From IMG/VR virus record IMGVR_UViG_2548876695_000022, positions 1 to 32,880 of that record: a stretch of DNA of 32,880 nucleotides; one strand, written 5' to 3'. The DNA is from a virus (lineage: Duplodnaviria; Heunggongvirae; Uroviricota; Caudoviricetes). The notes beneath the pieces are model-generated. The model did no database searches and was not told where the DNA came from. It saw only the letters and a program-made list of their open reading frames with translations. The first letter of the stretch is position 1; each line of letters opens with the position of its first letter. Of the stretch, positions 8,838-29,605 are shown in pieces. A program made the position numbers and the translations under genes.

Positions 8838-9267
8838 TATTGCTGTCGTCTGGGATCAGGGTTGCGGTTCCCTGCAACTGAACGGCGCAGATCTTCTGAC
8901 GGATAACAGCCTGCTGACTGCGGTCATTATTTCACTGTTTACGGACAGGCGGGCGCTGGATTCCGATGAAATCCCTGACGGCACCCGTGACCGTCGGGGA
9001 TGGTGGGGAGACAGTTTCCGGGAGCGCCCCGTTGGCTCCCGTCTCTGGCTGTTAAGCCGTGAAAAGACGCTGTCCTCCGTGGTCAGCCGTGCACAGGCCT
9101 ATGCTGATGAAGCGCTGGCGTGGCTGCATAAAAGCGGTGCTGCCACATCCGTGGTATGTCATGCCATGCGTGTGGGGCATGCTCGCCTTTCGCTTTCCGT
9201 GAAAATCACCCTGCCGGACGGAAGCAGACATCCGATGATTTTTTATGCTGATATGAAGGGGGAATGA
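8830..9267 (+). CDS. gp46 / gp25-like baseplate wedge protein
   Basis: Start placed at the internal ATG (8830) with a GGGAGG RBS, giving ~145 aa; the ORF track start at 8617 would overlap the upstream gene in-frame. Confidence 0.6.
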   Translation: MADIAVVWDQGCGSLQLNGADLLTDNSLLTAVIISLFTDRRALDSDEIPDGTRDRRGWWGDSFRERPVGSRLWLLSREKTLSSVVSRAQAYADEALAWLHKSGAATSVVCHAMRVGHARLSLSVKITLPDGSRHPMIFYADMKGE

Positions 9268-10349
9268 TGCCTTATCAGCCCTTACCACTGGCGCAACTGA
9301 TCACACAGACACAACAGGATATCAGCCAGCGCCTGCCCGGTTCGCAGCCGGGCGTGAATGAAACCACCCTGAATGCCATTGCGTATGCACTGGCGGGTCT
9401 GTCAGCACAGGAGCATGAACATCTGGCCTGGATCTCCCGGCAGATAATTCCGACAGAAGCTGATGAAGCCGAACTCCTGAAACACTGCGCATTCTGGGGT
9501 GTCATCCGTAAACCGGCTTCCCGCGCTGACGGACCGGTACAACTGATGCTGACCACGGATGCAGGGATCACGGAAGGCGTACTCCTTCAGCGAAGCGATG
9601 GGGTTGTGTACCGCATCACCGGCTCTGCGACCGGAAAAGCCGGAACACTGAATGTTAATGTGGAGGCGGAAAGTGCGGGGCGCGCTGGAAATACCCCGAC
9701 CGGAACCCGCCTGTCCTTTATCACGCCACAGGCGGGCATCAACCAGACAGCCACGGTCACCGGCACGGGACTCACCGGTGGTGCGGATGTGGAAACGGTG
9801 CCGGAGTTGCTGTCCAGGCTGGTATTCCGGGTACAGAACCCGCCATCAGGGGGAACACAGTATGATTTTGAACGCTGGGCACGGGAAGTACCGGGCGTGA
9901 CGCGGGCATGGTGTAAGCCTGAATGGCCTGAGGCGGGTAGTGTTGGTGTGACTTTTGTTCAGGATAATAACCCTGACATTTTCCCCGGAGAAGGTGATGT
10001 GAAGCGGGTGGCGGATTATATCCGCAGTCATGATGATCCGGCGACGGGCCAGCCCGTTGGTCAGCCACTTGGGCCGACAATCAGCGTGTTTAAGCTGACC
10101 AATAAGCCGGTGGCGTTTGAGATCAGGATTGTACCCAAAACGCCGGAAAATCAGGCTGCCGTAAAACAGGCATTAACGGACCTGCTTTATAACGAATCGC
10201 GGCCGGGTGGACTTGTATTGCCTTCATCATTCTGGCGGGCTGTTGCAGGGGTGAAAGGACTGGAGGATTTTGAAGTTCGCAGCCCGCTGAAGTCCGTGAT
10301 GGCCGGAGATACAGAGTTGCTGACCGTGGGGGAAATCACATGGCTGTAA
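9264..10349 (+). CDS. baseplate J-like protein (Mu gp47)
   Basis: 361-aa ORF overlapping the upstream stop; size and position match baseplate J-family proteins. Confidence 0.7.
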   Translation: MMPYQPLPLAQLITQTQQDISQRLPGSQPGVNETTLNAIAYALAGLSAQEHEHLAWISRQIIPTEADEAELLKHCAFWGVIRKPASRADGPVQLMLTTDAGITEGVLLQRSDGVVYRITGSATGKAGTLNVNVEAESAGRAGNTPTGTRLSFITPQAGINQTATVTGTGLTGGADVETVPELLSRLVFRVQNPPSGGTQYDFERWAREVPGVTRAWCKPEWPEAGSVGVTFVQDNNPDIFPGEGDVKRVADYIRSHDDPATGQPVGQPLGPTISVFKLTNKPVAFEIRIVPKTPENQAAVKQALTDLLYNESRPGGLVLPSSFWRAVAGVKGLEDFEVRSPLKSVMAGDTELLTVGEITWL

Positions 10350-10900
10350 CCCTGACCCCGCATCAGCGTGCCCTGTTGCAGTTGCTGCCTGACGGGCTGG
10401 CATGGGATAAGCGGCCGTCATCCGTTCTTGCGGCTTTGTGCCTGGGCCTCAGTCATTCCACGGAGCGTGTTTCCTGGACCGGTAACCAGATGCTGGCAGA
10501 ACGTTTTCCTGATTCATCCCGTCTGCTGCTGGAAGACTGGGAGCGTTATCTGGGGTTACCGGAATGTGATATGACCGGCGCAACCATTCAGGAGCGTCAG
10601 CGTTATGCCGGGAATAAATACCGGATGAAACCCTCTCTTAACCGTGAATTTTATATCCGGTTTGCGGCAGAGTTTGGTTATGAAATAGATATTCAGCCAT
10701 CACCGGATTCACAGTGGGTCAGTATTGTCACGATTAACAGTGAAACCGGCTACCGGAATATGAATGTGCTGGATGATATTCTCACGCCGCTGCGTATTTA
10801 TGAAGGCGGTGCGCTGGAATGTATTCTGAACCGTTATAAGCCTGCATGGCAGACGTTTATTTACGTGTATGCAAACAGCCATGAAGAGGAGACTATTTAA
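10340..10900 (+). CDS. tail/baseplate protein (Mu gp48, P2 gpI-like)
   Basis: 186-aa ORF between the J-like gene and the tail fibre gene, as in the Mu and P2 baseplate operons. Confidence 0.6.
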
Positions 10901-11811
10901 TGTTTCATGTTGATAATAATTCCGGCGTGGCGAATATGCCTGCGCTGGCACCGGCGCAGAGTAATACCACCACCTGGTTTACCGAAGGTGACGGACAAAA
11001 AGGTATCAGCTGGATTGGTCAGGACTGGCTGAATATTCTCCAGGCCGAACTGCTGAATATTCTGGCTGAAGCCAGTATTCAGCCGGATAAGGCGCAGTTA
11101 AACCAGCTTACGCTGTCTATTAAAGCCATTATCGCTGCGAATGCTTTTTCCCGGAAAAATAACCTGAAAGAAATTGCTGATGCCGGTGCGGAGGCCCAGC
11201 GTCTGGCCCGTGGTTATCTTGGTCTGGGGACGCTTGCCACAAAAAACAGTCTTGGTCCCGGTGACGTTAATGCCCTGGCGAAGGATCAGAATCTCGCCGA
11301 CCTGGAGAATAAGGGAACCGCCCGTAATAATCTGGATGTTTACAGCAAGAGCGAAGGTGATAACCGTTACCTGCGCAGGGACCAGAATGGCGCAGACATT
11401 CCGGATAAAGGCGCTTTTATCGATAACGTCGGTTTACGGGAAACGGTAAATAAGGCTGCTGATGCCCTGCCATCGGGTGGAACCGCCGTGGCAGCAAACA
11501 GACTCGCCACCCCAAAAAATATTAATGGCGTTCCTTTTGACGGAACGCAGGATATCAACATCACGTCAGGAATGACGCAGTCAACCGCAGATGGCCGGTA
11601 TGTACAGAATGTTCAGCTTGGAGCACAGAGCTATCATTCACCCGGAGGCAATGAAATATCATGGAATTACAGCGCACCTTCCGGTTGTATGCTTTCCGGT
11701 ATTAACGTGCAGGAAACCGGCTCCCGGTCTGCGGACAATATCGGTGGGGTCTATTATCGCCCGGTTCAGATTTATATTAATAATGCCTGGAGAACGGTAA
11801 GTTCAGTGTAA
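10900..11811 (+). CDS. tail fibre protein S (constant N-terminal part joined to the variable C-terminus in the current orientation)
   Basis: 303-aa ORF; its last ~125 aa parallel an inverted cassette on the - strand (12447-12809), with a gix-like crossover site inside codon V177. Confidence 0.8.
11417..11442. other. gix-like Gin recombination site (left boundary of invertible segment)
   Basis: TTATCGATAACGTCGGTTTACGGGAA; its reverse complement TTCCCGTAAACC-GA-CGTTATCGATAA matches the gix/hix consensus half-site; the 13-bp core TCGGTTTACGGGA recurs inverted at 12793-12805. Confidence 0.6.
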
Positions 11812-11821
11812 ACCACAGAAA

Positions 11822-11840
11822 AGGGTGCTGAATGCACCCT
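11822..11840. terminator. bidirectional hairpin between convergent S and U' genes
   Basis: AGGGTGC-tgaat-GCACCCT 7-bp stem; a T-rich tract follows on the - strand (TTTTCTGTGG). Confidence 0.45.
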
Positions 11841-11845
11841 CTGAA

Positions 11846-12367
11846 TTATTCCGGTTTTTCCGGCCAGGGAATCGCCTGGTAATGCCCCTCACTGGCAATA
11901 TCATTAAAGTGCATTTCTTTAAGCTGTCGGATATACGCCATCCAGCGCGTCAGCTGTAATTTATTTTCATCGCTAATCATGTCCAGTTTTAATTCTGTTT
12001 TCCAGTCATCCACGGTTTCGTTGGCTTCCTGGAGCAGCGATGAGCGACGCTTTTCAGCAACCGTCTTCCAGTTTACCGGCACCTTTGATATCAGGCCATC
12101 AGAAAACTGCCAGTTACCGTCAATATTCACACCTTCCGGCAGTTCGTCCACTTCAACAACAGTAAAACCTGCCGGATATAAAGCAGAGACATCTTCAGCA
12201 ACAGAGCAGATAATACCCGTTACAGGCGAAATACAGAGTTTGTATTTCTTTGTGAAAAGCGGGATAGATTCATAAAAATCCCTTCCGTCCTCACTCTGGA
12301 AATACTGAACATCCTCACCATAGGGTTTGTGTTCCGGGTAATATCGTTTTACGTTAATAAGCTCCAT
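11846..12367 (-). CDS. tail fibre assembly chaperone (Mu U-like; U' of the inverted set)
   Basis: Start placed at the internal Met (MELINVKRYYPEHKPYGED...) with an AAGGTG RBS; C-terminal ISDENKLQLTRWMAYIRQL pattern typical of Mu U/Tfa proteins; the ORF track extends to 12478. Confidence 0.8.
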   Translation of the reverse strand: MELINVKRYYPEHKPYGEDVQYFQSEDGRDFYESIPLFTKKYKLCISPVTGIICSVAEDVSALYPAGFTVVEVDELPEGVNIDGNWQFSDGLISKVPVNWKTVAEKRRSSLLQEANETVDDWKTELKLDMISDENKLQLTRWMAYIRQLKEMHFNDIASEGHYQAIPWPEKPE

Positions 12368-12446
12368 TATTTCACCTTGTTTTTGTTGAAAAGACAAAAT
12401 CATCATATATTTATTCAGATAATCTGTTTTTTGAACTACTGCACTT

Positions 12447-12809
12447 TTATGCGCTGGAAGCTGTTTTCCACGAACCATCTATCAGAAACTGAACAGGTCG
12501 ATAATATGCGGTTACCGTTGCATTACCATCACCAGCGACATCAAGCCCTGTAAGTACGCATCCGTCAGGAACCTCAAAAATATTATATTGCATTCCAATC
12601 GTTGACCTTGAACCTCTTCGAATGCTTTGAACATAACGTGAGTCAGCCACAGACTGCGTCATCCCCGATGTAATATTTATATCCTGCGTTCCGTCAAATG
12701 GGACACCATTAATATTTCTTGGAGTGGCGAGTTTATTCGCTGCAACAGCCGCTCCGTTCGATGGCAGGGCATTCGCGGCCCTGTTTACAGTATCCCGTAA
12801 ACCGAGGTT
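12447..12809 (-). CDS. promoterless alternative tail-fibre C-terminal cassette (S'v)
   Basis: The - strand frame is open from the gix-like site (stop at 12810-12812) and encodes NLGLRDTVNRAANALP...[22 protein letters not shown]...YYRPVQFLIDGSWKTASSA, paralleling the C-terminus of S; it has no start codon of its own at the 5' end. Confidence 0.7.
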   Translation of the reverse strand, partial: NLGLRDTVNRAANALPSNGAAVAANKLATPRNINGVPFDGTQDINITSGMTQSVADSRYVQSIRRGSRSTIGMQYNIFEVPDGCVLTGLDVAGDGNATVTAYYRPVQFLIDGSWKTASSA

Positions 12810-12817
12810 TCAGGGAT
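12792..12817. other. gix-like Gin recombination site (right boundary)
   Basis: ATCCCGTAAACC-GA-GGTTTCAGGGAT: near-perfect dyad around a central GA; core GTAAACCGAGGTTT matches the gix/hix consensus. Confidence 0.65.
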
Positions 12818-12871
12818 GCCGTATATCTGTTTTAAAAGGCATTTTCACCTCTTTTTAAGGAAGGTAAATAC

Positions 12872-13432
12872 ATGCTGATTGGCTATATACGCGTATCAAC
12901 AAATGACCAGAACACAGGTTTACAAAGAAATGCGCTGGAATGTGCAGGATGTGAGCAGATTTTTGAAGATAAAATGAGTGGTAAAACGACACAGCGGCCG
13001 GGACTGAAGCGGGCACTGAAGAAACTAAAACCCGGTGACACACTGATGGTCTGGAAACTGGACAGGCTGGGGCGCAGTATGCGCCACCTTGTTGCGCTGA
13101 CAGATGAATTACAGCAACAGGGGATAAATTTTCGTAGTCTTACTGACAACATTGATACGTCAACCCCCATGGGGCGCTTCTTTTTTCACATAATGGGTGC
13201 GCTGGCAGAAATGGAGCGTGAATTAATTGTCGAACGGACACGGGCTGGTCTTGCAGCTGCCCGTGAAAGGGGACGAACCGGCGGCAGACCCCGTCGTCTC
13301 ACGCAGGAACAATACGAGCAGGTCGGGCGTTTACTGGCCGGGGGTGTCAGTCGAAGACAGGTGGCACTTATTTTTGATATCGGCCTTTCAACCCTTTATC
13401 GTTATTATCCTGCGAGCGTTTCGGAAAAATAA
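12872..13432 (+). CDS. gin: serine DNA invertase (Gin/Hin/Pin/Cin family)
   Basis: 186-aa protein MLIGYIRVSTNDQNTGLQRNALECAGCEQIFEDK...RLGRSMRHL...GRPRRLTQEQYEQ, near-identical in pattern to Mu Gin including the catalytic Ser region and C-terminal HTH; AAGGAAGG RBS. Confidence 0.9.
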   Translation: MLIGYIRVSTNDQNTGLQRNALECAGCEQIFEDKMSGKTTQRPGLKRALKKLKPGDTLMVWKLDRLGRSMRHLVALTDELQQQGINFRSLTDNIDTSTPMGRFFFHIMGALAEMERELIVERTRAGLAAARERGRTGGRPRRLTQEQYEQVGRLLAGGVSRRQVALIFDIGLSTLYRYYPASVSEK

Positions 13433-13522
13433 GACGCTCCCTTTGTTGGGCCTTTACTGAATTAACGCAAAATGGCGTTTATCGGTCTGTGGATATGATA
13501 ATTCTGTTTATTCAGGAACAGG

Positions 13523-15580
13523 ATGAATATTATGACGTCCAAATGGGTTCAACTATCATCAATGCCCGGAAACTTTACCGTTAAAGTTTCCGGTGGTACA
13601 GCGGCATTTCTTGAGGCTCCCTTTCCTCCTGCTGAAACGAAAGGAGGAATGACATTTGCTGACTGTCTCATCAGTTTTAATACACAGGATTGCCTGTGGG
13701 TAAGGCCAGTATCCGGTGATCCGAACGTGGAAATTACCGGAGCGGGTATTGGTGCTGTCATTCCGTTAAGTGCTGATGTTGCCGGTACTGCTGAACCGTC
13801 AGACTGGGATAATGCAGAAACACATACCCGTCCGGCAGGAAATGAAACGGCTTCCAGCTCCCCTTCCTGGTATTACGTGATTGTTATAGCCGGCCAGTCC
13901 AATGCTTCATCTTATGGTGAAGGGTTGCCCCTTCCGGATTCTTATGATCGTCCTGATCCACGTATTATGCAGCTGGCACGCAGGAATACACAAACCCCCG
14001 GAGGTATTCCCTGCAAATACAATGAAATCATTCCAGCAGATCACTGCCTTCATGATGTTCAGAATATGAGTCTGCTGAACCATCCAAAAGCAGACCTGAA
14101 AAAAGGGCAGTATGGTTGTGTGGGGCAGGGACTTCATATTGCGAAAAAAGTATTACCGGTGATTCCTGCTGATGCCGGGATTTTACTGGTTCCCTGTGCC
14201 CGTGGCGGCTCTGCTTTTACAACCGGCGCAGTTGGCTCATTCGATCCGGCAAGTGGTGCAGCCGAGGCGTCACTACGCTGGGGAGTGGATACCCCACTGT
14301 ATCAGGATCTTGTCAGTCGAACTAAAGCGGCACTTGAGGCGAATCCAAAGAATGTGCTGTTATCTGTCGTATGGATTCAGGGGGAAGGAGACCTTAAAGC
14401 GACCCCGGCCCAGCATGGTGCCCAGTTTACTGCGATGGTGAAAAAATTCCGTGCGGATCTTGGTGCTTTCTCCGGTCAGTGTATTGGTGGTTCATCAGAC
14501 AGTGTGCCGTGGTTATGTGGTGACACAACCTATGACTGGAAAGAGAAGAACCCGGCGGCATATGAAACCATTTATAGCGGATATAAAAACCGGGCTTCCG
14601 AGAACATTCACTTTGTTCCACTGATGCACGATGAGTTCGGTAATAAAACCGCGACCAACCTGCCGGAGCACGACCCGGATATCGCTTCTGCCGGGTATTA
14701 TGGTGCGGAATCACGGGGAGATGGCAACTGGACAACAGCATCCAGGGCAACCCATTTTAGCTCCTGGGCGCGCCGTTTTCTGGTCTCAGATCGTTTTGCA
14801 TCAGCAATTCTTAAATATGCAGGTCTGACCTCTGCATTTATTGCCGGTGTGGCCCCTGATGGTGAAGCCCTGCCTCAGCCCGCGCCGGGTGGGAAACCGG
14901 AAGCGCCGACAGGTAGTCAGCCAGGAGGCAGTGAGTCCCCCCATCCGACATCCCCGTCACTCCGTACGCTGCTTTCACTTAAAGCATCAGCAGGAGAAGC
15001 CCCGGCTCAGGGCTGGAAAATTACAGATGGTACAATCCAGCTGACGGACGAAGGTAAAGCGTTGACCGTATCCAAACAAAGCGGAAAAACCTGGACGCTT
15101 ACCCATGGAACTGATGCAGCCGGTGAACTTCTGAAGCATGGTGGTCAGTTGACCTGTAAATTCCGTCTGTCAGGTGAAGTAAAAGAAGGCCAGTTTGCTC
15201 TGGGTATTTACCTCCACACCGATACGGTCCCGGAAGGTGTAACCATGAGTGGTACAGGCACACCGTTCCTGATGGCGTATTATCTCCAGACAACAGGCGG
15301 CCAGTTAAATCTGATGCACCATAAAACAGGGGGGAATACGAAACTGGGATCATTTGGAGCCTACAATAACCAGTGGCATACACTTGTCCTGAAGTTTACG
15401 GCGGGAAGTGCCCAGGTAACGCCTGTGCTGGATGGCACTCCGGGCCAGGCATTCCAGATGGTGAAAGATGCACTTTCCCCTGCCAAAGATACGCTGACAC
15501 TGACAGATGTCACCAAAGGGGCAACTTATGGCGTGTCTTTTGAGAGCGTTGTCCTTGAGGTTAATACCCCTGCGGCATAA
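13523..15580 (+). CDS. SASA/SGNH-family carbohydrate O-acetylesterase with C-terminal lectin-like domain (prophage cargo, NanS-p-like)
   Basis: 685 aa; motifs VIVIAGQSNASSYGEG and VVWIQGEGD typical of sialate O-acetylesterase (SASA) domains; Pro/Gly-rich linker then a beta-rich C-terminal domain; no signal peptide. Confidence 0.55.
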   Translation: MNIMTSKWVQLSSMPGNFTVKVSGGTAAFLEAPFPPAETKGGMTFADCLISFNTQDCLWVRPVSGDPNVEITGAGIGAVIPLSADVAGTAEPSDWDNAETHTRPAGNETASSSPSWYYVIVIAGQSNASSYGEGLPLPDSYDRPDPRIMQLARRNTQTPGGIPCKYNEIIPADHCLHDVQNMSLLNHPKADLKKGQYGCVGQGLHIAKKVLPVIPADAGILLVPCARGGSAFTTGAVGSFDPASGAAEASLRWGVDTPLYQDLVSRTKAALEANPKNVLLSVVWIQGEGDLKATPAQHGAQFTAMVKKFRADLGAFSGQCIGGSSDSVPWLCGDTTYDWKEKNPAAYETIYSGYKNRASENIHFVPLMHDEFGNKTATNLPEHDPDIASAGYYGAESRGDGNWTTASRATHFSSWARRFLVSDRFASAILKYAGLTSAFIAGVAPDGEALPQPAPGGKPEAPTGSQPGGSESPHPTSPSLRTLLSLKASAGEAPAQGWKITDGTIQLTDEGKALTVSKQSGKTWTLTHGTDAAGELLKHGGQLTCKFRLSGEVKEGQFALGIYLHTDTVPEGVTMSGTGTPFLMAYYLQTTGGQLNLMHHKTGGNTKLGSFGAYNNQWHTLVLKFTAGSAQVTPVLDGTPGQAFQMVKDALSPAKDTLTLTDVTKGATYGVSFESVVLEVNTPAA

Positions 15581-15637
15581 TCGTGACGGCCGGGAATTTA
15601 TCCGGCTGTAACATCAGTTAATAAGAGTGAGGCTTAT

Positions 15638-15817
15638 ATGACATATATAAACGTCTGCCTGCTGTATTTCTGCACGGTGGTTTGTTGTCTGTTGCTTGTC
15701 AGCGGTGGTTATAAAATTATTCGCAATTATTTTCGAAATAAAATTGATGCAGCTGCCGAGGAAAAGATAAAAAGCGGTGCTGTAATGCCGCAGCCGAAAG
15801 ACTCCGGTCAGATTTAA
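15638..15817 (+). CDS. 59-aa small membrane protein (hypothetical)
   Basis: ATG preceded by a GAGTGAGG RBS; MTYINVCLLYFCTVVCCLLLVSGGYKIIRNYFRNK... has one hydrophobic helix then a basic/charged tail; below the ORF-track size cutoff. Confidence 0.35.
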   Translation: MTYINVCLLYFCTVVCCLLLVSGGYKIIRNYFRNKIDAAAEEKIKSGAVMPQPKDSGQI

Positions 15818-15852
15818 TTTTTTGTGAACCAGAAAAGGAAAGGAGAATATTC

Positions 15853-16098
15853 ATGCCAGAGATTAAAGGCACGGTTACTGAAGAGCTTGTCAAACAGGCA
15901 CTTTATTCTGAAGAAGTGAACCGCGTGCTGAAGGCGCAGGTTCGCAAGGATTTTGAGGCACAAATCGACGCATATGTTGATGAAGTGCTGGCCCGAATGG
16001 TTGGTCGTTCTCCGGCTGAAAACAGCACGGAAAATGAGCCTCAACCCGTAGAGCAACCAGAGCCGGTTCAGCCCGGAACTGACGGTACTATGATGTAA
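15853..16098 (+). CDS. 81-aa acidic hypothetical protein
   Basis: Strong RBS AAAGGAAAGGAG before the ATG; helical N-terminal half and a Pro/Glu-rich C-terminus. Confidence 0.45.
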   Translation: MPEIKGTVTEELVKQALYSEEVNRVLKAQVRKDFEAQIDAYVDEVLARMVGRSPAENSTENEPQPVEQPEPVQPGTDGTMM

Positions 16099-16107
16099 CA
16101 ATACCGA

Positions 16108-16127
16108 CCGGCAGGTTTCCCTGCCGG
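16108..16127. terminator. bidirectional hairpin between the convergent 81-aa and zinc-ribbon genes
   Basis: Perfect 8-bp stem CCGGCAGG-tttc-CCTGCCGG with T-rich flanks on both strands. Confidence 0.5.
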
Positions 16128-16136
16128 GTGAATTTG

Positions 16137-16307
16137 TTAATGCACGTTTTGTGTATTTTCCCTCCGGGGAGAACAGGCAGGACATATCAGCATCCTGAAA
16201 CAGGAAGCATTTTTTGGTTTGTATGTCTTGCCATTTTGAGATCGAGAACGGCGATAGATGAGCTGTAAGGGAGTCTTACAGGCAGGGCAAACAGGCTCTT
16301 TATCCAT
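16137..16307 (-). CDS. 56-aa zinc-ribbon protein (CPAC...CPAC), function unknown
   Basis: Start at the internal ATG with an AAGGAG RBS 9 nt upstream; MDKEPVCPACKTPLQLIYRRSRSQNGKTYKPKNASCFRMLICPACSPRREN has two CxxC pairs; the ORF track lists 16137..16331. Confidence 0.45.
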   Translation of the reverse strand: MDKEPVCPACKTPLQLIYRRSRSQNGKTYKPKNASCFRMLICPACSPRRENTQNVH

Positions 16308-16415
16308 GATAAAGATCTCCTTTTTATGCATCTCTGCTTTACAGGAGACCGGGGAATATCATAGGATACGCCACGAGCTCGAAGTAAAGCATTGATGCAA
16401 GTTTTTACAGATTGA

Positions 16416-16454
16416 CCCAGCATAGTTCCAGCTATGCTGGGTTTCACTTTTATG
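16416..16454 (+). terminator. rho-independent terminator-like hairpin (+ strand)
   Basis: Perfect 10-bp stem CCCAGCATAG-ttccag-CTATGCTGGG followed by TTTCACTTTTATG; the exact window centre falls in this element. Confidence 0.45.
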
Positions 16455-16713
16455 TAGTATCCTGTTGATTTGAAACATACTACATATACGCGCGATCCTA
16501 CCTTCACTGTATAAAAAGTCAATAAAATGATCATTTTATGATCGTTTTCACCACCTAACTCTTCGTTTCTTTAAGTAAATAATCACCGCCCTGAATCATT
16601 GTTGATGACTTTTAAATCTATTTGTTGTATCAATTAAACAAATCGAATCGATCGTTTTTGTCGATCGATTGCATGAGAAAGGCATCAACAACAAAGCAGG
16701 AGGTTATGCGGCC
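16451..16713 (+). promoter_or_regulatory. com-mom upstream control region (palindromes, GATC cluster, RBS)
   Basis: 10-bp inverted repeat TATGTAGTAT/ATACTACATA (16451-16460 and 16477-16486) with 16-bp spacer; five GATC sites at 16494, 16529, 16540, 16650 and 16663; dyad AATCGATCG-tttttgt-CGATCGATT at 16646-16670; AGGAGG 11 nt before the com ATG. Confidence 0.5.
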
Positions 16714-16914
16714 ATGTATCGAAACATACGGTGCCGACACTGCAATAAGCTACTGGCACGGGCCAGTTTCAGTTATCTGGAAGTAAAATGTCCGCGCTGT
16801 AAAACCCTCAATCAAATCACATCTCCGAGCGCCACAGAGCACCCCACATACACAAGGAAATCCTGTCGTGGGGAACAGAAAGCAAGTCACATCCCGTATC
16901 ATCAGCACGCCTGA
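16714..16914 (+). CDS. com: Com zinc-finger translational activator of mom
   Basis: [35 protein letters not shown] matches the Mu Com zinc-finger pattern (IRCKNCNKLL...CPRCK); the 3' end overlaps the downstream gene as in Mu. Confidence 0.8.
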
Positions 16915-17605
16915 ACTTATTCGCTATAACGACAATATCGTTGGTTATGGCTCCCGTGAGTTGCGGGTTGAGACAATAAGTTGCTGGCTGGCCAGACTGG
17001 TTATCGTCAATAAACATTACAGCCACCGTTTCGTAAATAATTCCTACCTTCATCTGGGTATATTTTCAGAACGGGAACTTGTTGGCGTAATGCAATGGGG
17101 TTACGCCCTTAACCCAAACAGTGGTGCACGCGTCGTAACGGGTACGCAGAACCGAGAATATATGGAGCTTAACCGGCTATGGATGCATGACTGTATGCCG
17201 AGAAACTCCGAATCAAGGGCAATCAGTTACGCGCTCAAGCTAATCAGGCAGCTTTATCCGCAGGTACAGTGGGTTCAGTCGTTTGCAGATGAGCGTTGTG
17301 GCTGTCTTGGTGTCGTGTATCAGGCCAGCAATTTTGATTATGTAGGCAGCCATGAATCAACATTCTATGAACTTGATGGCGAGTGGTATCACGAGATTTG
17401 CAGGAGTGCCATTAAACGAGGCGGACAACGAGGTGAACATCTGAGGGCTAATATCGACAGAGCCAGTGTGCATAAGTTCCGACAGTTTCGTTACATCCGG
17501 TTTCTGAACAAGAGGGCCAGAAAACGCCTCAACACAAAGCTATTCAAAGTCCACCCTTACCCAAAACCACAAACAGTTAAAACTGGTTTGAAAGAGAGTG
17601 AATGA
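16868..17605 (+). CDS. mom: Mom DNA-modification (anti-restriction) protein
   Basis: 245-aa ORF with GTG start overlapping com, in the Mu position after gin; the com-mom pairing is diagnostic. Confidence 0.75.
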
Positions 17606-17644
17606 GCGCTTAAAAACTCATTCTAAAACTCAAAAGAAAAGCGC

Positions 17645-17725
17645 CGATTTAGTATCAAATAAGTTGCGTATCGGCGTTTTTCAGCGGTATCAAATGAAAT
17701 GCAAATCGGTATCAAAAAAATCGCC
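17645..17725. repeat. three direct repeats (G)GTATCAAA in the mom-distal intergenic region
   Basis: Copies start at 17652, 17686 and 17708, plus GTATCGG at 17668; candidate transposase end-binding sites of the Mu-like element or an operator for the downstream operon. Confidence 0.4.
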
Positions 17726-17747
17726 GCGCTATAAACAGCTAAAGCAG

Positions 17748-18404
17748 ATGCGGGAAACGCTGGCAAAAGCTGACCTTCCCCCGCGTAAGCGCCAGCGCCT
17801 TTTATGGCGTATTGCAAAGCTGGGCATTGTCGCAGCGGCAAAACGTCACCAGCGCCAGCAGGCGGCCCCGGACGGTACGCCGTGGGAGCCGCGCAAGCGT
17901 GGCAAAGGGAAGATGTTAAAAGGGCTGCCCAAGCTGTTGGCCGTGCGCGAAATGCCGGAGATTCAGGGGGTAAGAATTTACCTCAAGGGCGGGAACTACC
18001 GGAACGGGACGAAGCCCATCGCGGCGGGTCTGGTCGGCGCGGTCCAGCAGGACGGCGCACGGATCCAGATGAAAGCCAGTAACGCCCCGCGTAAGCCGCA
18101 GGCTGACAAGCCAGCGCTACCGCGACAGGCCAAGCGTCTGCGGGCGCTGGGTTACAAAACCCGCAAGGGCAAACGCTGGGTTAAGCCGTCCAGCAAGCAA
18201 ATCATGGAAACCATGAGCATGGCCCAGGCGGGATTACTGATTCGAAAACTGAAAGGCACACCCTCAAAACGCACATGGACCATTGATATTCCTGGGCGCG
18301 TTTTTCTGGGGGTGAGCAACGACGAATTTAACCAAATTATTGCGCGGCAAATGCAGGCAATCGGCTTCGGCTGGGACGTCAACGCGCAGCAAATCAGGGG
18401 GTAA
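17748..18404 (+). CDS. virion morphogenesis / tail completion protein (P2 gpS / Mu G-like)
   Basis: Pattern RKRQRLLWRIAK...QQAAPDGTPWEPRKRGKG...IPGRVFLGVSNDEF resembles the gpS-type tail completion family; start uncertain (ORF track begins with GTG at 17598; ATG at 17748 chosen, no strong RBS). Confidence 0.45.
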   Translation: MRETLAKADLPPRKRQRLLWRIAKLGIVAAAKRHQRQQAAPDGTPWEPRKRGKGKMLKGLPKLLAVREMPEIQGVRIYLKGGNYRNGTKPIAAGLVGAVQQDGARIQMKASNAPRKPQADKPALPRQAKRLRALGYKTRKGKRWVKPSSKQIMETMSMAQAGLLIRKLKGTPSKRTWTIDIPGRVFLGVSNDEFNQIIARQMQAIGFGWDVNAQQIRG

Positions 18405-18406
18405 AA

Positions 18407-19549
18407 ATGACCTGGCCGAATGTCAACGTCAGTCAGAAAAACCGCTTCAACGGCACAACGAACGACGTCGAGCGCGTCATCCTCTTTGTGGGTTACGGCG
18501 ACACTAACATCGGGAAAACCCAGTCGCTGAATACCGGCAGCGATCTGGATAAAGCCCTGGGCGACAAAGACAGCCCGTTAAAAAATATGGTGGCCGCAGC
18601 GGCCAATAACGCCGGTCAGAACTGGTTTGCTTACGTGCATGTGCTGGCAGAACCAGACAAGGAAGCCGAGGGCTATAAACCAGATGAAGACTGGATGAAC
18701 GCGGTCAAGATGGCCCAGAGCGTGGCATCCGTGGAAGGGGTTTTCCTGGTATTTGATACCGACGAAGTGGCAACCATCAACCGTGCAACGGAAATGCGTA
18801 TCACCTTGCAGGCTAATTATGGGCGATTTATCTGGTTTGGCCTTGCGATAGGCGGGCCGAAACAGGGCGAAGCATGGGCCGATTATGTGACGCGCCTGGC
18901 ACAACTCCAGGACGGTATTGCGTCACCGGGTGTGCAACTGGTCCCGCGTCTGTGGGGCAATGAACCCGGCGTCCTGGCCGGTCGCTTGTGTAACCGTTCG
19001 GTGACGGTGGCAGACAGCCCCGCCCGCGTTGCAACCGGCGCAGTCACCGCGCTGGGGCGTGACAAACTGCCGGTTGACGGGACGGGAGCCGAAATTGATC
19101 TGTCCGTGTTGCAGTCCCTGCAGGTGAACCGCTACAGCGTGCCGATGTGGTATCACGACTATGACGGCATCTACTGGGCTGACGGTCGCACCCTGGACGT
19201 TGAAGGCGGCGATTATCAGGTCATTGAAAACGTGCGCGTGGTTGATAAAGCATCCCGACGCGTCCGTCTGCGTGCTATCCCCAAAATTGCCGATCGTTCA
19301 CTGAACAGCACACCGGGCAGCATTGCCGCGCATGAAACCTATTTCGGCAAGCCGCTGCGTGAAATGGCGATTTCAACCCAGATCAATGGCGTCGAATTTC
19401 CGGGCGAAGTGAAGCCACCAAAGGACGGTGACATCACCATCACCTGGACCAGTAGCGAAGCGGTACAGATTTACCTTGTGGTTCGACCGTATGAGAGCGC
19501 GAAAGAAATCAGCGTCAGCATCGAACTGGACACCTCACTGGAGAGCTAA
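18407..19549 (+). CDS. putative tail sheath protein
   Basis: 380-aa ORF directly upstream of a tube-sized ORF in a tail module; assignment by size and position only. Confidence 0.45.
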   Translation: MTWPNVNVSQKNRFNGTTNDVERVILFVGYGDTNIGKTQSLNTGSDLDKALGDKDSPLKNMVAAAANNAGQNWFAYVHVLAEPDKEAEGYKPDEDWMNAVKMAQSVASVEGVFLVFDTDEVATINRATEMRITLQANYGRFIWFGLAIGGPKQGEAWADYVTRLAQLQDGIASPGVQLVPRLWGNEPGVLAGRLCNRSVTVADSPARVATGAVTALGRDKLPVDGTGAEIDLSVLQSLQVNRYSVPMWYHDYDGIYWADGRTLDVEGGDYQVIENVRVVDKASRRVRLRAIPKIADRSLNSTPGSIAAHETYFGKPLREMAISTQINGVEFPGEVKPPKDGDITITWTSSEAVQIYLVVRPYESAKEISVSIELDTSLES

Positions 19550-19552
19550 TCA

Positions 19553-20008
19553 ATGACTGAACGTATTAGCGGCGGATCGTTCGATGTGAACTACGACAGC
19601 ATCATGATTCACGTCGAAAACGCCACCGTCACCATTACGGATAACAGCGCCGTTGCGCAGTCGCGTGGCATCCCGAACGGCCACACGAAAGGGTCAGTTT
19701 CGGCGGATGTGGAAGTCGAAGTCGATTCCCAGAGCTTTAAAAAGTTTACCGCCGTTGCCCGTGCCGCAGGTTCCTGGCGAGCCATTCCGGCAAAGGACTT
19801 TTTGTTCTATGCCAATGCGGGGGATGACGAAGAAAAAATCGAGGTGTTTGGCTGTGTTCCGACGCTGTCCGACATCGTCAACATCAACCCCAACGAGGCC
19901 AGCAAAACCACGAAAAAAATTAAATTCATGGTGACAAGCCCGGACTTTGTCGCGATTGACGGCGTGCCGTACCTGTCAGCCCGTGACACTCGAGATCTGA
20001 AAGGCTGA
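19553..20008 (+). CDS. putative tail tube protein
   Basis: 151-aa ORF following the sheath-sized gene; assignment by size and position only. Confidence 0.45.
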   Translation: MTERISGGSFDVNYDSIMIHVENATVTITDNSAVAQSRGIPNGHTKGSVSADVEVEVDSQSFKKFTAVARAAGSWRAIPAKDFLFYANAGDDEEKIEVFGCVPTLSDIVNINPNEASKTTKKIKFMVTSPDFVAIDGVPYLSARDTRDLKG

Positions 20009-20012
20009 CACG

Positions 20013-20324
20013 ATGATGAACGGAGAAACGTCACTGCTTGAAAAGCTGTTGCTTATCGGGGCCGTGATCGGCCTGGGGCAACTGATGGTCAGCAATGAGC
20101 GAATCACAACCCGTCTGCTGGTCGGGCGGATGATTCTGGGATCTGCAGTCGCACCGCTGGCCGCAATCCCGCTGCTGAAATTCCCCGATATGCCGGAACT
20201 GGTCGTCATTGGGCTGGCCTGCGCCCTGGGCATTCTGGGAAGTGCGTTTATTGAGGCGGGGCTAAAGCGCTGCCTGGACATGTATATCAAGCGATGGGGG
20301 AGCAAGCGCAATGAAACTGAGTGA
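20013..20324 (+). CDS. holin (three predicted transmembrane segments)
   Basis: 103 aa with hydrophobic stretches LLLIGAVIGLGQLMV, LLVGRMILGSAVAPLAAIPLL and LVVIGLACALGILGSAFI and a charged C-terminus; immediately upstream of the endolysin. Confidence 0.6.
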   Translation: MMNGETSLLEKLLLIGAVIGLGQLMVSNERITTRLLVGRMILGSAVAPLAAIPLLKFPDMPELVVIGLACALGILGSAFIEAGLKRCLDMYIKRWGSKRNETE

Positions 20325-20649
20325 AAAACAGCAACTTTTTACGGTGATGATCGCCAGCCTGATTCATTTTGCCCAGGAAAAAGGCTATCGCCTGACGTTT
20401 GGCGAAGCGTACCGCACGCCGGAACAGGCCGCGCTTAACGCAAAAAAAGGGAGCGGCATTACTAACAGCCTGCATACCCAGCGCCTTGCGGTGGATTTTA
20501 ACCTGTTTATTAACGGCGAATACCAGACCGACAGCGCCGCATATCGCCCCCTGGGCGAATACTGGGAATCTATCGGCGGATCGTGGGGTGGACGTTTCAG
20601 TAAGCCGGACGGGAACCATTTCAGTCTTGAGCATAACGGGGTTCGCTGA
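20311..20649 (+). CDS. endolysin, peptidase M15-type zinc peptidase
   Basis: 112 aa with H...D...H zinc-site spacing (HTQRLAVDF ... DGNHFSLEH) characteristic of M15 cell-wall peptidases; overlaps the holin 3' end. Confidence 0.7.
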   Translation: MKLSEKQQLFTVMIASLIHFAQEKGYRLTFGEAYRTPEQAALNAKKGSGITNSLHTQRLAVDFNLFINGEYQTDSAAYRPLGEYWESIGGSWGGRFSKPDGNHFSLEHNGVR

Positions 20650-21032
20650 TGCGCAATTTGCTGGGTCTTTTGCTGATTCTGGCAGCTGCAATGTCAGCGG
20701 GCTGGCAGGCGCATGACTGGCACGACGCAAAGCTGAAACTCGCTGCCAGTGAAGCGGCAGAACAAACGCGCCAGATTGTTGTTGAGGTGACACAGCAGTC
20801 TGGTGAAGCGCTGGAAGCAAAACTCGCGGAGCTGAGGGCCAATGAAATTCATACGGAACGGGTTATCCGCACGGAAACCATTAAATCGGTTTTTAGCAAT
20901 GTTTGTGCTTCTGATGATTACGTCCGGTTGTTCAACGAAAGTGCAGATCAAGCCGAACGAAAATTATCAGGAAAACCAGCTGGCACTTTGCCCGGTCACG
21001 TTGCCACGTCTGGCCGGACCGACCGGAAGTGA
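20649..21032 (+). CDS. i-spanin (Rz-like)
   Basis: N-terminal transmembrane segment MRNLLGLLLILAAAMSAGW followed by a charged coiled-coil-like region; ATG overlaps the endolysin stop (TGATG). Confidence 0.6.
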   Translation: MRNLLGLLLILAAAMSAGWQAHDWHDAKLKLAASEAAEQTRQIVVEVTQQSGEALEAKLAELRANEIHTERVIRTETIKSVFSNVCASDDYVRLFNESADQAERKLSGKPAGTLPGHVATSGRTDRK

Positions 21033-21138
21033 CTTTGACGCGGCGCTGAAAGCCTACCGGCTGATGTATACCGACTGCGCCGCCCGACATAACGCCCTGG
21101 TGGGCATCATTCGACAACGTAAGGAATTAGCACAATGA
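20842..21138 (+). CDS. o-spanin (Rz1-like lipoprotein), overlapping i-spanin in the +1 frame
   Basis: Signal peptide plus lipobox-like LLMITSG-C; starts inside the i-spanin gene and extends beyond it; alternative start at 20899. Confidence 0.55.
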   Translation: MKFIRNGLSARKPLNRFLAMFVLLMITSGCSTKVQIKPNENYQENQLALCPVTLPRLAGPTGSDFDAALKAYRLMYTDCAARHNALVGIIRQRKELAQ

Positions 21139-21404
21139 GCAAATCGAAAAAAATCGCCATGACCGTGGCGGGCGTAAATCTGAGCTTTGAGCCGAATAAA
21201 ACCGCGTTCAACAACCTGCTTAACGAAATGACCATGACCAATAAAGTTGCCCCAATGGTGACGTATCTGGGCCGCATTGTTGATGCCGAGTGTAAAGAGG
21301 CGCTCAACAAGCTGATGGAAGATTATCCGGGCTGCGAAATGCAGATCGTCGAGAAGGTTAACGAAATTTACTCCCCAAAACTTGAGATCGAAGTAAAAAA
21401 CTGA
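21135..21404 (+). CDS. tail assembly chaperone (P2 gpE / lambda G-like)
   Basis: 89-aa ORF just upstream of the tape measure; ends on a slippery A_AAA_AAC heptamer with a -1 frame open to the tape-measure start. Confidence 0.6.
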   Translation: MSKSKKIAMTVAGVNLSFEPNKTAFNNLLNEMTMTNKVAPMVTYLGRIVDAECKEALNKLMEDYPGCEMQIVEKVNEIYSPKLEIEVKN

Positions 21405-21592
21405 CGGCGCGGGTAGCGGCCATTCGCACGAATGCCCTGGAGCAATACCTTGCCTTGCGCCGCTATTACCTCCCGCACGAAGACGACGACGAAGAAAGCA
21501 TCGCCCGCGCCCTGTGGCTGGATGAATATTTCGCCCAGACCCGCGCCAGTAAGACGGCGGAAGGGATAGCAATCGCATTTAACGGAAACTGA
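21395..21592 (+). other. programmed -1 ribosomal frameshift site and extension of the tail chaperone
   Basis: Heptamer A AAA AAC at 21395-21401, seven nt before the zero-frame stop; the -1 frame reads KKLTARVAAIRTNALEQYLALRRYYLPHEDDDEESIARALWLDEYFAQTRASKTAEGIAIAFNGN to a TGA at 21590-21592, 1 nt before the tape-measure ATG (21594). Confidence 0.5.
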
Positions 21593-21593
21593 T

Positions 21594-23708
21594 ATGAGCC
21601 ACCTGGATTTTACCCTGAGCCTGATCGATAAGCTGACGCGGCCATTAAAGACGGCCCAGTCTTCGCTGTCTGGCTTTGCTGAAAAATCGCAGGAGTCTTT
21701 TACAAAAATCGGGATTGGTGCGGCGGCTGTCTGGGGCGTGGCGCAGTCCATCGCGGGCGTGGTGGGTCCGGCGTATGAGATGAACGCCGCGCTTGCAGAA
21801 GTGGGTTCCAAAGGCGTAGCAGAGGACGCGCTGAAGCGTATGTCCGGCGAAGCCATGCGATTCAGTATGCGCTACGGCAAAGGGGCCGTTGATGTGGTCC
21901 GGTCAAGCTACGCGATGAAAGGCGCAATGGCGGGCCTGTCCGATCTGGACCTGCCCCGCGTTACCATCGCGGCCAATACCCTGGCCGCAGGCGTCAAGGC
22001 CAGCGGCGAAGAGGCAGGCGAATACATCGGCGCGATGGCGTCACGTTTCAACGCGGAATTGTCCAGTCTGGGGCATGTGCGTTTTGCCGAAGAGCTGGCA
22101 GGAAAAACGGCGTACATGGTGCAAAACTTCGGCGTGAAAATGCAGACCATGCAGGAGCTTATCGAGGGGACGAAAAGCGCCGGTGCTGACTTTGGCGTCA
22201 GCCTGGATGAACAGTTCGCCGTACTGGGTACGCTTTCGCGCACGCTGGGTACTGAGGCCAGCGGGATCTACGAGCAGTTTTTACGCAGCGCCCCGGCTGC
22301 CGCTGAAAAGCTGGGTATGAGCTTTGTCGATGCCACCGGAAAAATGCTGCCGATGGGCGACATTCTGCAAAAACTCCAGAACAAATACGGGCAGAGCATT
22401 GAAGGGAACGTCAAGGCACAACAGGCGCTGGATGCCGCGTTCGGTGGTGGTGCTGACGTTATCAAAAAGCTGTACGGCCAGCAGGATAAATTAAACCGCA
22501 GCATCACCGAGCTGGGCCGAAATGACGGGATGAAACGCGCCCAGGAAATGGCCGAACGAATGGCTGAGCCGTGGGAACGTATCAAAGCGACATTCTTTGC
22601 CATTCGCGTGGCGATTGGTAACACGCTGTTCCCTATCCTGTCGCCGCTGATGAACCGTATTGCCGACGTGGGGACAAAATTTGCCCGCTGGCTGGATATG
22701 TTCCCGAATATTGCCCGCTGGCTGGGTTACATCACCCTGGGCGTGCTGTCCTTCGGGTTGGCTGGGGCGGCGGTCAATATCGTGATGGGGGTCTTTGGCT
22801 TCACCATGACAGGGCTGGCCGCAATTGCAAAAGTGCTGGGCGGGGCATGGAAACTCCTGTTATGGACGCTCAACCTGTTGCGTCCGTCCCTGCTGACGAC
22901 GCGCATCGGTCTGGCTGCATTGTGGATCCAGTCAAAATTACTGGCGCTGTGGACGGGCGTCTGCCGCATCGCGCTTGCTGCATGGAATATCGCGTTAAAG
23001 GCCGGAGCCATTGCCATGCGGGTTTACGGTGCGGCGACCATGTTTGCCGGGGCGGCAATGCAACTCCTGATGAGTCCGATCACTCTGATCGTTGCCGGGC
23101 TGGCACTTCTGGCCGTGGGGGTCTGGTATGTCATCACCCACTGGGAAGAACTGGCGGCAGCAATCATGGATACGTCGGCTTTTGCCTGGGTGATGTCGGT
23201 CGCTGAACAGGTAGGCCAGGTGTTTGCGCAGGTCTGGCAGTCCATCACAGACGGCTGGGCCGTGGTGGTTGATTTCTTTGCCGGTCTTTCCCCGCTTGCC
23301 ACCTTTGAAGGGTTCGCACAAACCATCGGCGGGGTATTCAGCAAACTTTTTGACGTCCTCAAAAATACCTTTGCGTCTACCTATAACTGGATTGTCGAGA
23401 AGTTAAACAAGATCCCCGGCGTAAACATCGACCTGAAAACCGTTTCGCCACCGGCAGCGGCTGCCGTTCCGGCAAATGCGGTCATTCCTGACAGTGCTGC
23501 AGGTTCATCGAAGCTAAACAGCCCGTCCGTGCTGACGGGGAACCGAATTAATGCAGGCATCCCACGCGGCGGCCTGATGAGTCAGGTTAAAAACGACAGC
23601 AAAACCGCTGTTGATAACCGTAAAACGTGGGGCGATACCTACATCAACGCCCCCAATGGAATCACCCCGGCCCAGCTGGCTGAATGGCAGGAGCTTAACG
23701 CAGGATGA
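21594..23708 (+). CDS. tail tape measure protein
   Basis: 704 aa with a helical N-terminal region, central hydrophobic segments and position after the frameshifting chaperone. Confidence 0.8.
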   Translation: MSHLDFTLSLIDKLTRPLKTAQSSLSGFAEKSQESFTKIGIGAAAVWGVAQSIAGVVGPAYEMNAALAEVGSKGVAEDALKRMSGEAMRFSMRYGKGAVDVVRSSYAMKGAMAGLSDLDLPRVTIAANTLAAGVKASGEEAGEYIGAMASRFNAELSSLGHVRFAEELAGKTAYMVQNFGVKMQTMQELIEGTKSAGADFGVSLDEQFAVLGTLSRTLGTEASGIYEQFLRSAPAAAEKLGMSFVDATGKMLPMGDILQKLQNKYGQSIEGNVKAQQALDAAFGGGADVIKKLYGQQDKLNRSITELGRNDGMKRAQEMAERMAEPWERIKATFFAIRVAIGNTLFPILSPLMNRIADVGTKFARWLDMFPNIARWLGYITLGVLSFGLAGAAVNIVMGVFGFTMTGLAAIAKVLGGAWKLLLWTLNLLRPSLLTTRIGLAALWIQSKLLALWTGVCRIALAAWNIALKAGAIAMRVYGAATMFAGAAMQLLMSPITLIVAGLALLAVGVWYVITHWEELAAAIMDTSAFAWVMSVAEQVGQVFAQVWQSITDGWAVVVDFFAGLSPLATFEGFAQTIGGVFSKLFDVLKNTFASTYNWIVEKLNKIPGVNIDLKTVSPPAAAAVPANAVIPDSAAGSSKLNSPSVLTGNRINAGIPRGGLMSQVKNDSKTAVDNRKTWGDTYINAPNGITPAQLAEWQELNAG

Positions 23709-24040
23709 GTACCGAACCGTTATACATCGACCTTTTGATCACTGACGGCGATTTCACGCTGGACAGCGGCAACGAGCCGCGCCGTTGCGATAACCGCGAC
23801 AGCATCACCCAGGACATTATTCACAGCATTCTGGAAAGCGGTATCACCACCCGCCTGATCGGTGAACGCAGCCCGACAATGCGCGGTGACGTGCTGACGC
23901 AACTGTCCTTACTGGTGGAAAGCGACGAACGTCTGGTCCCAGGAACCATAGTGATCACCGAAGAAACCCTTTCGAGGTTGTATATCACGGCGGAAACCTA
24001 CGATTTCGGCCCTGTCAGTACAGAGGTTAACTATGACTGA
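23705..24040 (+). CDS. baseplate wedge protein (P2 gpW / T4 gp25-like)
   Basis: 111 aa, start overlaps the tape-measure stop; size and position before the J-like gene. Confidence 0.55.
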   Translation: MSTEPLYIDLLITDGDFTLDSGNEPRRCDNRDSITQDIIHSILESGITTRLIGERSPTMRGDVLTQLSLLVESDERLVPGTIVITEETLSRLYITAETYDFGPVSTEVNYD

Positions 24041-25217
24041 GAAACCCGACGTTGATTTCGAAAAGGTACTGAATGACAGCGGGATGCCCGCGACAGAGGC
24101 CGAAATTACGGCGGCATTTAAAGCCACCGTGCAGGCGGAAGGGTTCGTCACAAACACGTCGAGAATGTCACCTTTCTGGCGGCTGATTTCGAAGATTGTC
24201 ACCACGCCGGTGTTATGGCTGCGTGCGGCGCTGATCGATGTGGTTCTGCGCAATATGTTTGTTGCGACTGCCACCGGTCCCATGCTGCGCCTGCTGGCCT
24301 GGGCGGTTCATATCGAGCCTAAACCGGCCAGTGCTGCCGCTGGCGTGCTGCGATTCTTCAAGCTGAATGCGGCGGATGTGGTCGTCGTGCCTGCCGGAAC
24401 ACTGGTGCAAACAGAGCGCATTAACGGCGTGGTTTACGTGCTGGCCGTGAATGAAGACGTGACACTGCCTGCCGGGGTTGAAAGCGGGCTGGTTCCCGTC
24501 ACGGCGACCGGCACCGGCAGCGGCTATAACCTTGCGCCAGGCTATTACCGGATCTTACCTGTTGCAGTAGCTGGAATCGCCAGCGCGGTCAATGAGGACG
24601 AATGGCTGATTACGCCAGGGGCTAACGAGGAAAGCGACGACGAGCTGCGCGACCGCACCCGCAACCAGTTTAATCTGGTGGGGAATTACCACTCTGACGC
24701 TATCTACCGCAGCATGATTGCCAGCGTGCTGGGCCTGAGCATTGATCGCATCTACTTTTTGCACGATGCCCCGCGTGGGCCGGGTACGGCAAATGCTTAT
24801 CTGTTACTGGACAGCGGCGAAATATCACAGCCCTTTATTGATGCGGTTAACGATTATGTGAATACCCAGGGCCACCACGGACACGGTGATGATCTGCAGT
24901 GTTATGCCATGCCGGAAACCAGTCACACCCTGGCGGTTACTGTCTATGTCAAAAGCGTGGAAAACATGGAAGCGGAAGACCTGAGCGCGTTAAAAACCGG
25001 TATTACCGACCTGATTCGTTGCGCGTTTCGCGAGAACGCCAATTACGACGTTAAAAAGACGCAGCCCTATTCGCGCTATTCCTTTTCGAATCTGGGCCGC
25101 GAGATCCACAAGGCTTTTCCGGTTGTCGATTCACTGCATTTTTCACTAACGGATATTGTCAGCGAACTGTCGGTCCCGCGCCTGTCAGGGTTAACGGTGG
25201 AGATTGAAAATGACTGA
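24033..25217 (+). CDS. baseplate J-like protein
   Basis: 394 aa between the W-like and I-like genes, as in the P2 V-W-J-I-H-G operon. Confidence 0.6.
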   Translation: MTEKPDVDFEKVLNDSGMPATEAEITAAFKATVQAEGFVTNTSRMSPFWRLISKIVTTPVLWLRAALIDVVLRNMFVATATGPMLRLLAWAVHIEPKPASAAAGVLRFFKLNAADVVVVPAGTLVQTERINGVVYVLAVNEDVTLPAGVESGLVPVTATGTGSGYNLAPGYYRILPVAVAGIASAVNEDEWLITPGANEESDDELRDRTRNQFNLVGNYHSDAIYRSMIASVLGLSIDRIYFLHDAPRGPGTANAYLLLDSGEISQPFIDAVNDYVNTQGHHGHGDDLQCYAMPETSHTLAVTVYVKSVENMEAEDLSALKTGITDLIRCAFRENANYDVKKTQPYSRYSFSNLGREIHKAFPVVDSLHFSLTDIVSELSVPRLSGLTVEIEND

Positions 25218-25803
25218 GTTTTCGAAGTTGCTTTCCGGTCTGAAATTGCCGTCGTGGCTGAACAAAGGCGACCCCGCCAGGCTGTTGCGTGGCAGCGTGA
25301 AGTTCTGGTCGCAGGTGTACGGGTGGATCACCTGGCCGTTAAAGCAGTTTGACCCGCTGGTTTGCCCTGAGCCGCTGTTGAACCTGATTGCCTGGGAGCG
25401 CGACATCGATCGGTTTAAGGGGGAGCCGCTCGACATCTTCCGCAAGCGGGTGAGTTACGCATTTATCAATGCGCAGCAGGCCGGAGAGGTGGCGGGCTTT
25501 ATTGCCATTTTTGAGCGACTGGGGATTGGTTACGTTGAATTACTGGAACGGCAGGACGGACTCGACTGGGACGTGATTGTCGTTCGAGTGACAAGCAGCC
25601 AGGTTGCGGAAAATGGCGATCTCCTGCTGGAAATCATTCGCAAATATGGGCGCACATGCCGCCGTTACCAGTTTGAAGTAATCGACACCCTGCCACTGAA
25701 TATCAATATTGGCTGGTATCAGGGGGAATATATTTGCTGGCCTGCCACCCTGGGCGATGTGAATAACCAGTCAGAAGCAACATATAGCGCAAGTTTGAAG
25801 TAG
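25210..25803 (+). CDS. tail protein I-like (P2 gpI)
   Basis: Motif [16 protein letters not shown] resembles P2 gpI CPANLLPWLAWAFSVD; ATG at 25210 with GGTGGAG RBS (ORF track begins at TTG 25204). Confidence 0.6.
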
Positions 25804-25814
25804 AGGGAATATTA

Positions 25815-29598: not shown

Positions 29599-29605
29599 TT
29601 AAACG

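Follow-up and report, generated by a model that had tools for sequence, protein, structure and literature searches.

What is a phage tail module without any head genes doing 128 bp downstream of a mom gene, and why is the short interval between them filled with direct repeats? In the stretch of DNA that we analysed (32,880 nt, hereafter the window), genes of a Mu-like prophage run up to mom and are followed, after a noncoding interval, by the genes of a second contractile-tail phage. A previous interpretation made from the letters alone (hereafter the sequence-only reading) had considered this interval as the possible right end of a Mu-like prophage, inserted into or abutting a second element. 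It is almost certain that an Sp18-type Mu-like prophage has entered a P2-like prophage of Escherichia coli and that positions 17606–17733 form its right end (attR). The boundary, the empty site, and the target duplication described below support insertion into the second element and not mere abutting.

The Mu-like part of the window contains the following features:

1–17733, plus strand: right half of an Sp18-type Mu-like transposable prophage, 99.0–99.8% identical to the Mu-like prophages of STEC E. coli
16714–16914, plus strand: com, translational activator of mom (Pfam Zn_ribbon_Com, E = 2e-12)
16868–17605, plus strand: mom, the last gene of the Mu-like prophage (Pfam Mom, E = 8e-77)
17606–17733, plus strand: noncoding right end (attR) of this element; every comparison puts the end of Mu-like homology at 17733
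17730–17733, plus strand: right terminus, ...TATA-3', with the end annotated at the same base in LC727895

Its gene content extends from the tail sheath to the baseplate, an invertible fibre segment, a Gin-like invertase, SASA/DUF6645, DUF1378, DUF826, com, and mom, and its relatives exhibit the complete Mu gene order. The window does not reach the early region of this copy, and the evidence for a transposase comes from near-identical relatives, which encode a Mu-type transposase (Mu-transpos_C, HTH_Tnp_Mu_1), an adjacent AAA ATPase, Gam, and Mor. The stop codon of mom ends at 17605, leaving 128 bp to the terminus.

Several other traits of this element were observed. Two 182-nt inverted repeats, 78% complementary (11425–11606 and 12628–12809), bracket a segment of ~1 kb with a tail-fibre assembly gene and a small minus-strand fibre ORF, adjoined by the Gin-like recombinase (12872–13432). 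This is an invertible host-range segment, whose content is unlike that of the copy in strain JNEC-KY174 (12359–12629 remained unaligned). Between the invertase and com, the cargo at 13523–16098 comprises a single 685-aa protein matching both SASA (sialate O-acetylesterase-like) and DUF6645, then DUF1378 and DUF826 proteins. This set is typically found downstream of stx in lambdoid Stx phages (nanS-p-like), which suggests module exchange between Mu-like and Stx phages. Two neighbouring minus-strand ORFs of 123 and 115 aa (15814–16534) are placed between DUF826 and com; their RefSeq equivalent is a single frameshifted hypothetical gene. Upstream of the region covered by the window, RefSeq annotates in Sp18-like prophages an 80-nt minus-strand 'tRNA-OTHER' between the head-morphogenesis and virion-morphogenesis genes (L042 18623–18702, also in L045 and L046).

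We compared the region 15600–19600 by megablast with complete E. coli genomes and, separately, with phage records. The matches to E. coli Mu-like prophages were 99.7–99.8% identical and most of them ended at window position 17733, with a few extending 2–5 bases further by chance identity with other flanks. The Mu-like phage carried within the Stx phage LC727895 also matched up to 17733, and the Salmonella phages SI7, SW5, and SW3 (Peduoviridae, Irrigatiovirus) matched from 17734 on. The end of homology at 17733, the start of the P2-like similarity at 17734, and the annotation of LC727895 therefore place the boundary between the two elements at 17733/17734. Up to that point the Mu-like right end reads ...GCCGCGCTATA, and its terminus was invariant in 17 IMG/VR loci and 3 complete genomes with differing flanks.

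The other side of the boundary belongs to a single element:

17734–32880, plus strand: distal part of a P2-like prophage (Peduoviridae, SI7/Irrigatiovirus-like), identical over 15147/15147 positions to the prophage of E. coli O45:H2 FWSEC0003

The genes after 17733 are Phage_tail_S and a DUF2586 sheath, then an HP1/P2-type tube, lysis, and tail module; the whole part encodes a truncated S, sheath, tube, holin, endolysin, spanin, tape measure, baseplate, and fibre proteins, unknown cargo, and AbiH, within whose gene the window ends. The sequence-only reading had attributed the gene following mom to a different contractile-tail system and had described a tail module devoid of head genes; both points held, since Phage_tail_S, the sheath, and the HP1/P2-type module were found and no head gene of the second phage occurs within the window. 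Salmonella phage SI7 is collinear with the window from 17734 (SI7 position 6741) for ~14 kb at 94.3% identity. The distal cargo (28320–32880) includes three ORFs, two of them (254 and 574 aa) without any family match and one (180 aa) matching only Pfam HP1_ORF34, followed by the abortive-infection gene AbiH on the minus strand (31915–32880), just before yegQ. PADLOC detected no defence family among the cargo ORFs except AbiH; this region may be a defence hotspot.

The sheath protein of the window is found unchanged in many contigs, and seven of the eight places that we examined corresponded to an uninterrupted P2-like prophage with the order Ogr, portal, terminase, scaffold, capsid, small terminase, L, R, S, and sheath. 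The eighth, JASS01000001.1 (GCA_000703305.1), was identical to the window over 21143/21143 positions and is evidently either where the window comes from or a clone thereof. In the uninterrupted relatives the late operon follows the order Q-P / O-N-M-L-R-S-sheath-tube, with Ogr, of which the window has only S' onward. The empty site reads ...CCAGCAACAGCTAAAG... and is intact in L004–L009, L011, and L050; all uninterrupted copies carry ...GTGATCCGTGGGGAGCTGAACCAGCAACAGCTAAAGCAGATG.... Furthermore, 18 complete E. coli genomes hold the region 17734–21000 with at least 99% identity and at least 80% coverage, and the 12 listed among them matched it in full at 100%. In E. coli O45:H2 FWSEC0003, the prophage occupies the interval between yegR and yegQ and is present from integrase to AbiH. 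In genomes lacking the Mu-like element, a comparison proposed with the original observation, the tail module thus continues without interruption into the head genes.

We retrieved the left junction from one IMG/VR contig (L012), using a pattern built from the predicted left junction; it reads ...GAGCTGAACCAGCAACA joined directly to TGTAACCAGGTGAATCATTTGATACC. The P2-like part of this contig begins with head genes, includes the first 29 nt of S, and is identical over 7822/7822 positions to the FWSEC0003 prophage (positions 12183–20004 of locus L050), and the P2-like part of the window corresponds to positions 20001–35147 of the same locus. The two flanks overlap by four bases, AACA (20001–20004), present in both the left flank of the contig and the right flank of the window, and therefore reveal a 4-bp target-site duplication:

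17734–17737, plus strand: right copy of the target-site duplication AACA

A duplication of 5 bp had been anticipated; the duplication exists, but its length is 4 bp. This contig and the window (JASS01000001.1), which may come from different assemblies, are best interpreted as representing the same event, because they have the same site in the same prophage and insertion sites differ almost everywhere else. We predict that the left junction in JASS01000001.1 reads ...GAGCTGAACCAGCAACA followed by TGTAACCAGG, about 38.8 kb upstream of the right junction, and that the Mu left end is flanked there by the S-gene sequence ...CCAGCAACA. The exact sequence of the right junction had no match in IMG/VR. 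The GpR protein was discarded as a route to the left junction, its cluster representative being a Salmonella variant only 98% identical.

The abrupt meeting of two phage-derived regions in a window without head genes might also be expected from an assembly chimera, or from recombination or deletion between prophages instead of transposition. However, the junction is repeated in independent assemblies (L010, L047, L048, and L049), the break falls at the exact terminus of the phage, and there is a reciprocal left junction at which 4 bp are duplicated and none of the target is lost, so that we consider this origin most improbable.

Within the P2-like prophage, the insertion point falls in the tail-completion gene S, near codon 9. 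The match with SI7 begins 25 nt into gp08 ('tail completion or Neck1', GTG start, 231 aa), the homologue of P2 gene S, which is intact in SI7 whereas its counterpart in the window is interrupted by the Mu-like element. PGAP sets the start of the native S at an ATG (window 17748), which yields a protein of 218 aa. We favour the GTG start, which overlaps the stop codon of gene R, because the Pfam Phage_tail_S alignment starts at residue 8 of the 231-aa form. With either start, the insertion cuts off S and all that follows it from the remainder of the late operon. At the right junction, the remainder of S forms part of a new reading frame:

17694–18404, plus strand: chimeric ORF of 236 aa, called as a gene in the identical locus L010 (Pfam Phage_tail_S, E = 1e-6)

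This ORF consists of an ATG contributed by the Mu end (17694) plus 13 codons, fused in frame to S from codon 10, and contains the native S ATG (M14) at 17748. The exact 236-aa protein is present in 111 blocks of public assemblies, versus 8999 for the sheath protein, so the right junction is carried by a lineage and not by a single genome. It is very unlikely that Mu late control extends to the orphaned tail and lysis genes of the P2-like prophage by way of read-through from mom and the in-frame ATG of the Mu end.

The interval between mom and the terminus contains three copies of the octamer GTATCAAA and a hairpin:

17636–17682, plus strand: hairpin (inverted repeat) with a 13-bp stem and a 21-nt loop, then TTTTT; R3 lies inside the loop
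17652–17659, plus strand: R3, innermost copy, AGTATCAAA; core TTGATAC 76–82 nt from the right terminus
17687–17694, plus strand: R2, middle copy, GGTATCAAA; core 41–47 nt from the right terminus, 22 bp from R1
17709–17716, plus strand: R1, outermost copy, GGTATCAAA; core 19–25 nt from the terminus, the L1 core being equally distant at the left end

All three are on the plus strand and no more than 128 bp past the stop codon of mom, in agreement with the three direct copies first noticed there. Over the whole window and both strands, GTATCAAA occurs 5 times against an expectation of 0.79, and 3 of the 5 copies are packed into 65 bp; the clustering therefore exceeds chance. The left end of this Mu-like phage lineage also has three TTGATAC cores, at 19–25, 114–120, and 166–172 nt from the terminus. 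All six cores have the same orientation relative to their terminus, the left set being inverted with respect to the right one. The same repeat was thus recovered at the other prophage end, where the original observation had suggested looking for it, inverted and with its outermost copy at equal distance from the terminus. The three copies of GTATCAAA would be the cores of transposase-binding sites R1, R2, and R3, and the six candidate sites can be summarised as ATTTGATAC(C/T)G.

The hairpin is a plausible candidate for a com-mom terminator. RNA folding of 17600–17700 gave −28.4 kcal/mol (z = −4.3), and the LC727895 variant retains the stem, with a G-T pair replaced by G-C; a simple terminator scan missed this structure, whose loop is longer than 8 nt. 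With R3 in the loop of such a strong hairpin, followed by a run of T just past mom, the repeats could be thought to serve mom/com regulation or transcription termination instead of transposition. Yet the core is also present three times at the left end, where mom is absent, and its outermost copy is equidistant from both termini; a terminator role of the hairpin, though quite plausible, would involve its stem and not the repeat. We therefore give this explanation hardly any credence.

The alternative offered by the sequence-only reading, namely that the repeats are activator sites of a late promoter for the downstream P2-like tail operon, has practically no chance of being right: although the first tail gene of the window comes right after them, they belong to the sequence ending at 17733, travel with the Mu-like end, and recur beside unrelated flanks in many genomes, whereas the uninterrupted prophages, 100% identical downstream, do not have them, the gene R stop overlaps the S GTG in the native operon and leaves no R-S intergenic region, no sigma-70-like promoter was found in 16600–18500, and 17606–17747 contains no TGT and hence no TGT-N12-ACA, the Ogr-type dyad of P2.

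The interpretation of these sites as the right end of a Mu-like prophage can be compared with phage Mu itself. The distance from the mom stop to the end is 115 bp in the attR of Mu and 128 bp here. Both have three sites per end with an R1-R2 spacing of 22 bp, the left end of both has a first site near the terminus and two more ~110–170 nt inward, and both have A as the 3'-terminal base. The Mu cores (AARYRCGAAA), reportedly assigned by Craigie, Mizuuchi and Mizuuchi in 1984 to the MuA sites R1–R3 and L1–L3, are at 17, 39, and 57 on the right and at 17, 122, and 162 on the left. A sub-motif, TCAYTTGA, is common to Mu L1 TTCACTTGAAG and Mu R3 TTCATTTGAAG and to ATCATTTGATA and TTCATTTGATA in the element studied here. 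By contrast, the site sequence is ATTTGATACCG here and AARYRCGAAA in Mu, the cores are 2 nt farther from the terminus than those of Mu, all three right-end sites are direct whereas R3 of Mu is inverted, the right terminus is TA instead of CA, and the duplication has 4 bp instead of 5. No DNA similarity to Mu was detected at the megablast level. The canonical Mu end, which had been sought in vain in the sequence, is indeed absent, the Sp18-type lineage having termini of its own.

Sp18 of E. coli O157:H7 Sakai and the Sp18-like STEC phages, among them Mu_JNE122137 in LC727895 and Mu_JNE082796 in LC727881, are much closer, with at least 99.7% identity to the window from mom to the terminus. They share with the window element the same termini, the same repeat cores, and 4-bp flanking duplications, annotated by the depositors; in two Stx phage records, the annotation includes the Mu-like insertion together with its duplications. 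They differ by their insertion site, which is gene S of the yegR/yegQ P2-like prophage in our case, and by minor allelic differences in the invertible segment and the early region. Sp18 has been predicted to be intact and its invertible host-range segment is distinct from that of Mu (PMC2669165), and six of ten Sp18-like Mu-like phages in closed CC119 STEC genomes sit inside mobile elements, often within other prophages (PMC10132054). This kind of nested-prophage event and the Sp18-type ends are thus already on record, and what is specific here is the target.

The 4-bp duplication is a constant trait of these insertions. We found an exact one in all six insertions with both flanks readable (window, L002/L003, L012, L014/L040, L042, L045, and L046):

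This window (P2-like gene S): AACA
LC727895 (Stx1a phage): AGAG
IMG genome 2529293218: AGAA
E. coli JNEC-KY174: CAAC
E. coli FORC_028 (ybbA): AGCA
E. coli 2018-166 (a terminase gene): AAAC

A 5-bp reading obtained by shifting the boundary by one base at either end failed in the six insertions. The Sp18-type termini are T(G/A)TAACC...GCGCTATA; the right terminus is always TA and the left one is TG, but TA in 4 of the 15 left-end IMG/VR loci, so that these ends do not have the 5'-TG...CA-3' termini. A search with a degenerate pattern for the two termini retrieved 30 IMG/VR loci, and their flanks are diverse, only two loci sharing one. Similarly, the insertion sites in three complete genomes differ (ybbA, a terminase gene, and an Ldr locus).

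The target duplication is 5 bp long in Mu and 6 bp long in B3. Duplications of 5 or 6 bp are the rule in transposable phages according to a review (PMC8705779). In the searchable literature on the Mu family, we found only 5- or 6-bp duplications and TG...CA ends described. The 4-bp repeats annotated by depositors in GenBank were not discussed in the literature that we searched, where we found nothing on JNE122137, and the paper on SfMu says nothing about ends or duplications. Target cleavage with a 4-bp stagger, and the use of a TA, not CA, 3' terminus at the right end, are likely traits of the Sp18-lineage transposase.

By analogy with Mu, a MuA-like transposase would bind the six sites, R1–R3 and the inverted L1–L3, and pair both ends; it would then nick each end at its terminal 3' A and join the ends to staggered positions of the target. 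The target here was the 5' end of gene S, at about codon 9, in the P2-like prophage between yegR and yegQ, and AACA was duplicated. This insertion of ~39 kb divides the late operon of the P2-like prophage: the genes for portal, terminase, scaffold, and capsid, together with L and R, are now located on the far side of the Mu left end, outside the window, and S', sheath, tube, lysis, and tail genes come after the Mu right end. The window exhibits a tail module without head genes for this reason. The interruption has probably left the P2-like prophage defective.

Beyond annotation, the significance of this particular insertion is slight. Nested prophages such as this one yield apparent 'tail modules without heads', and the junction, with its 236-aa chimeric ORF, cleanly marks one E. 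coli lineage. The constant 4-bp duplication and the TA terminus represent a small, testable departure from the Mu paradigm.
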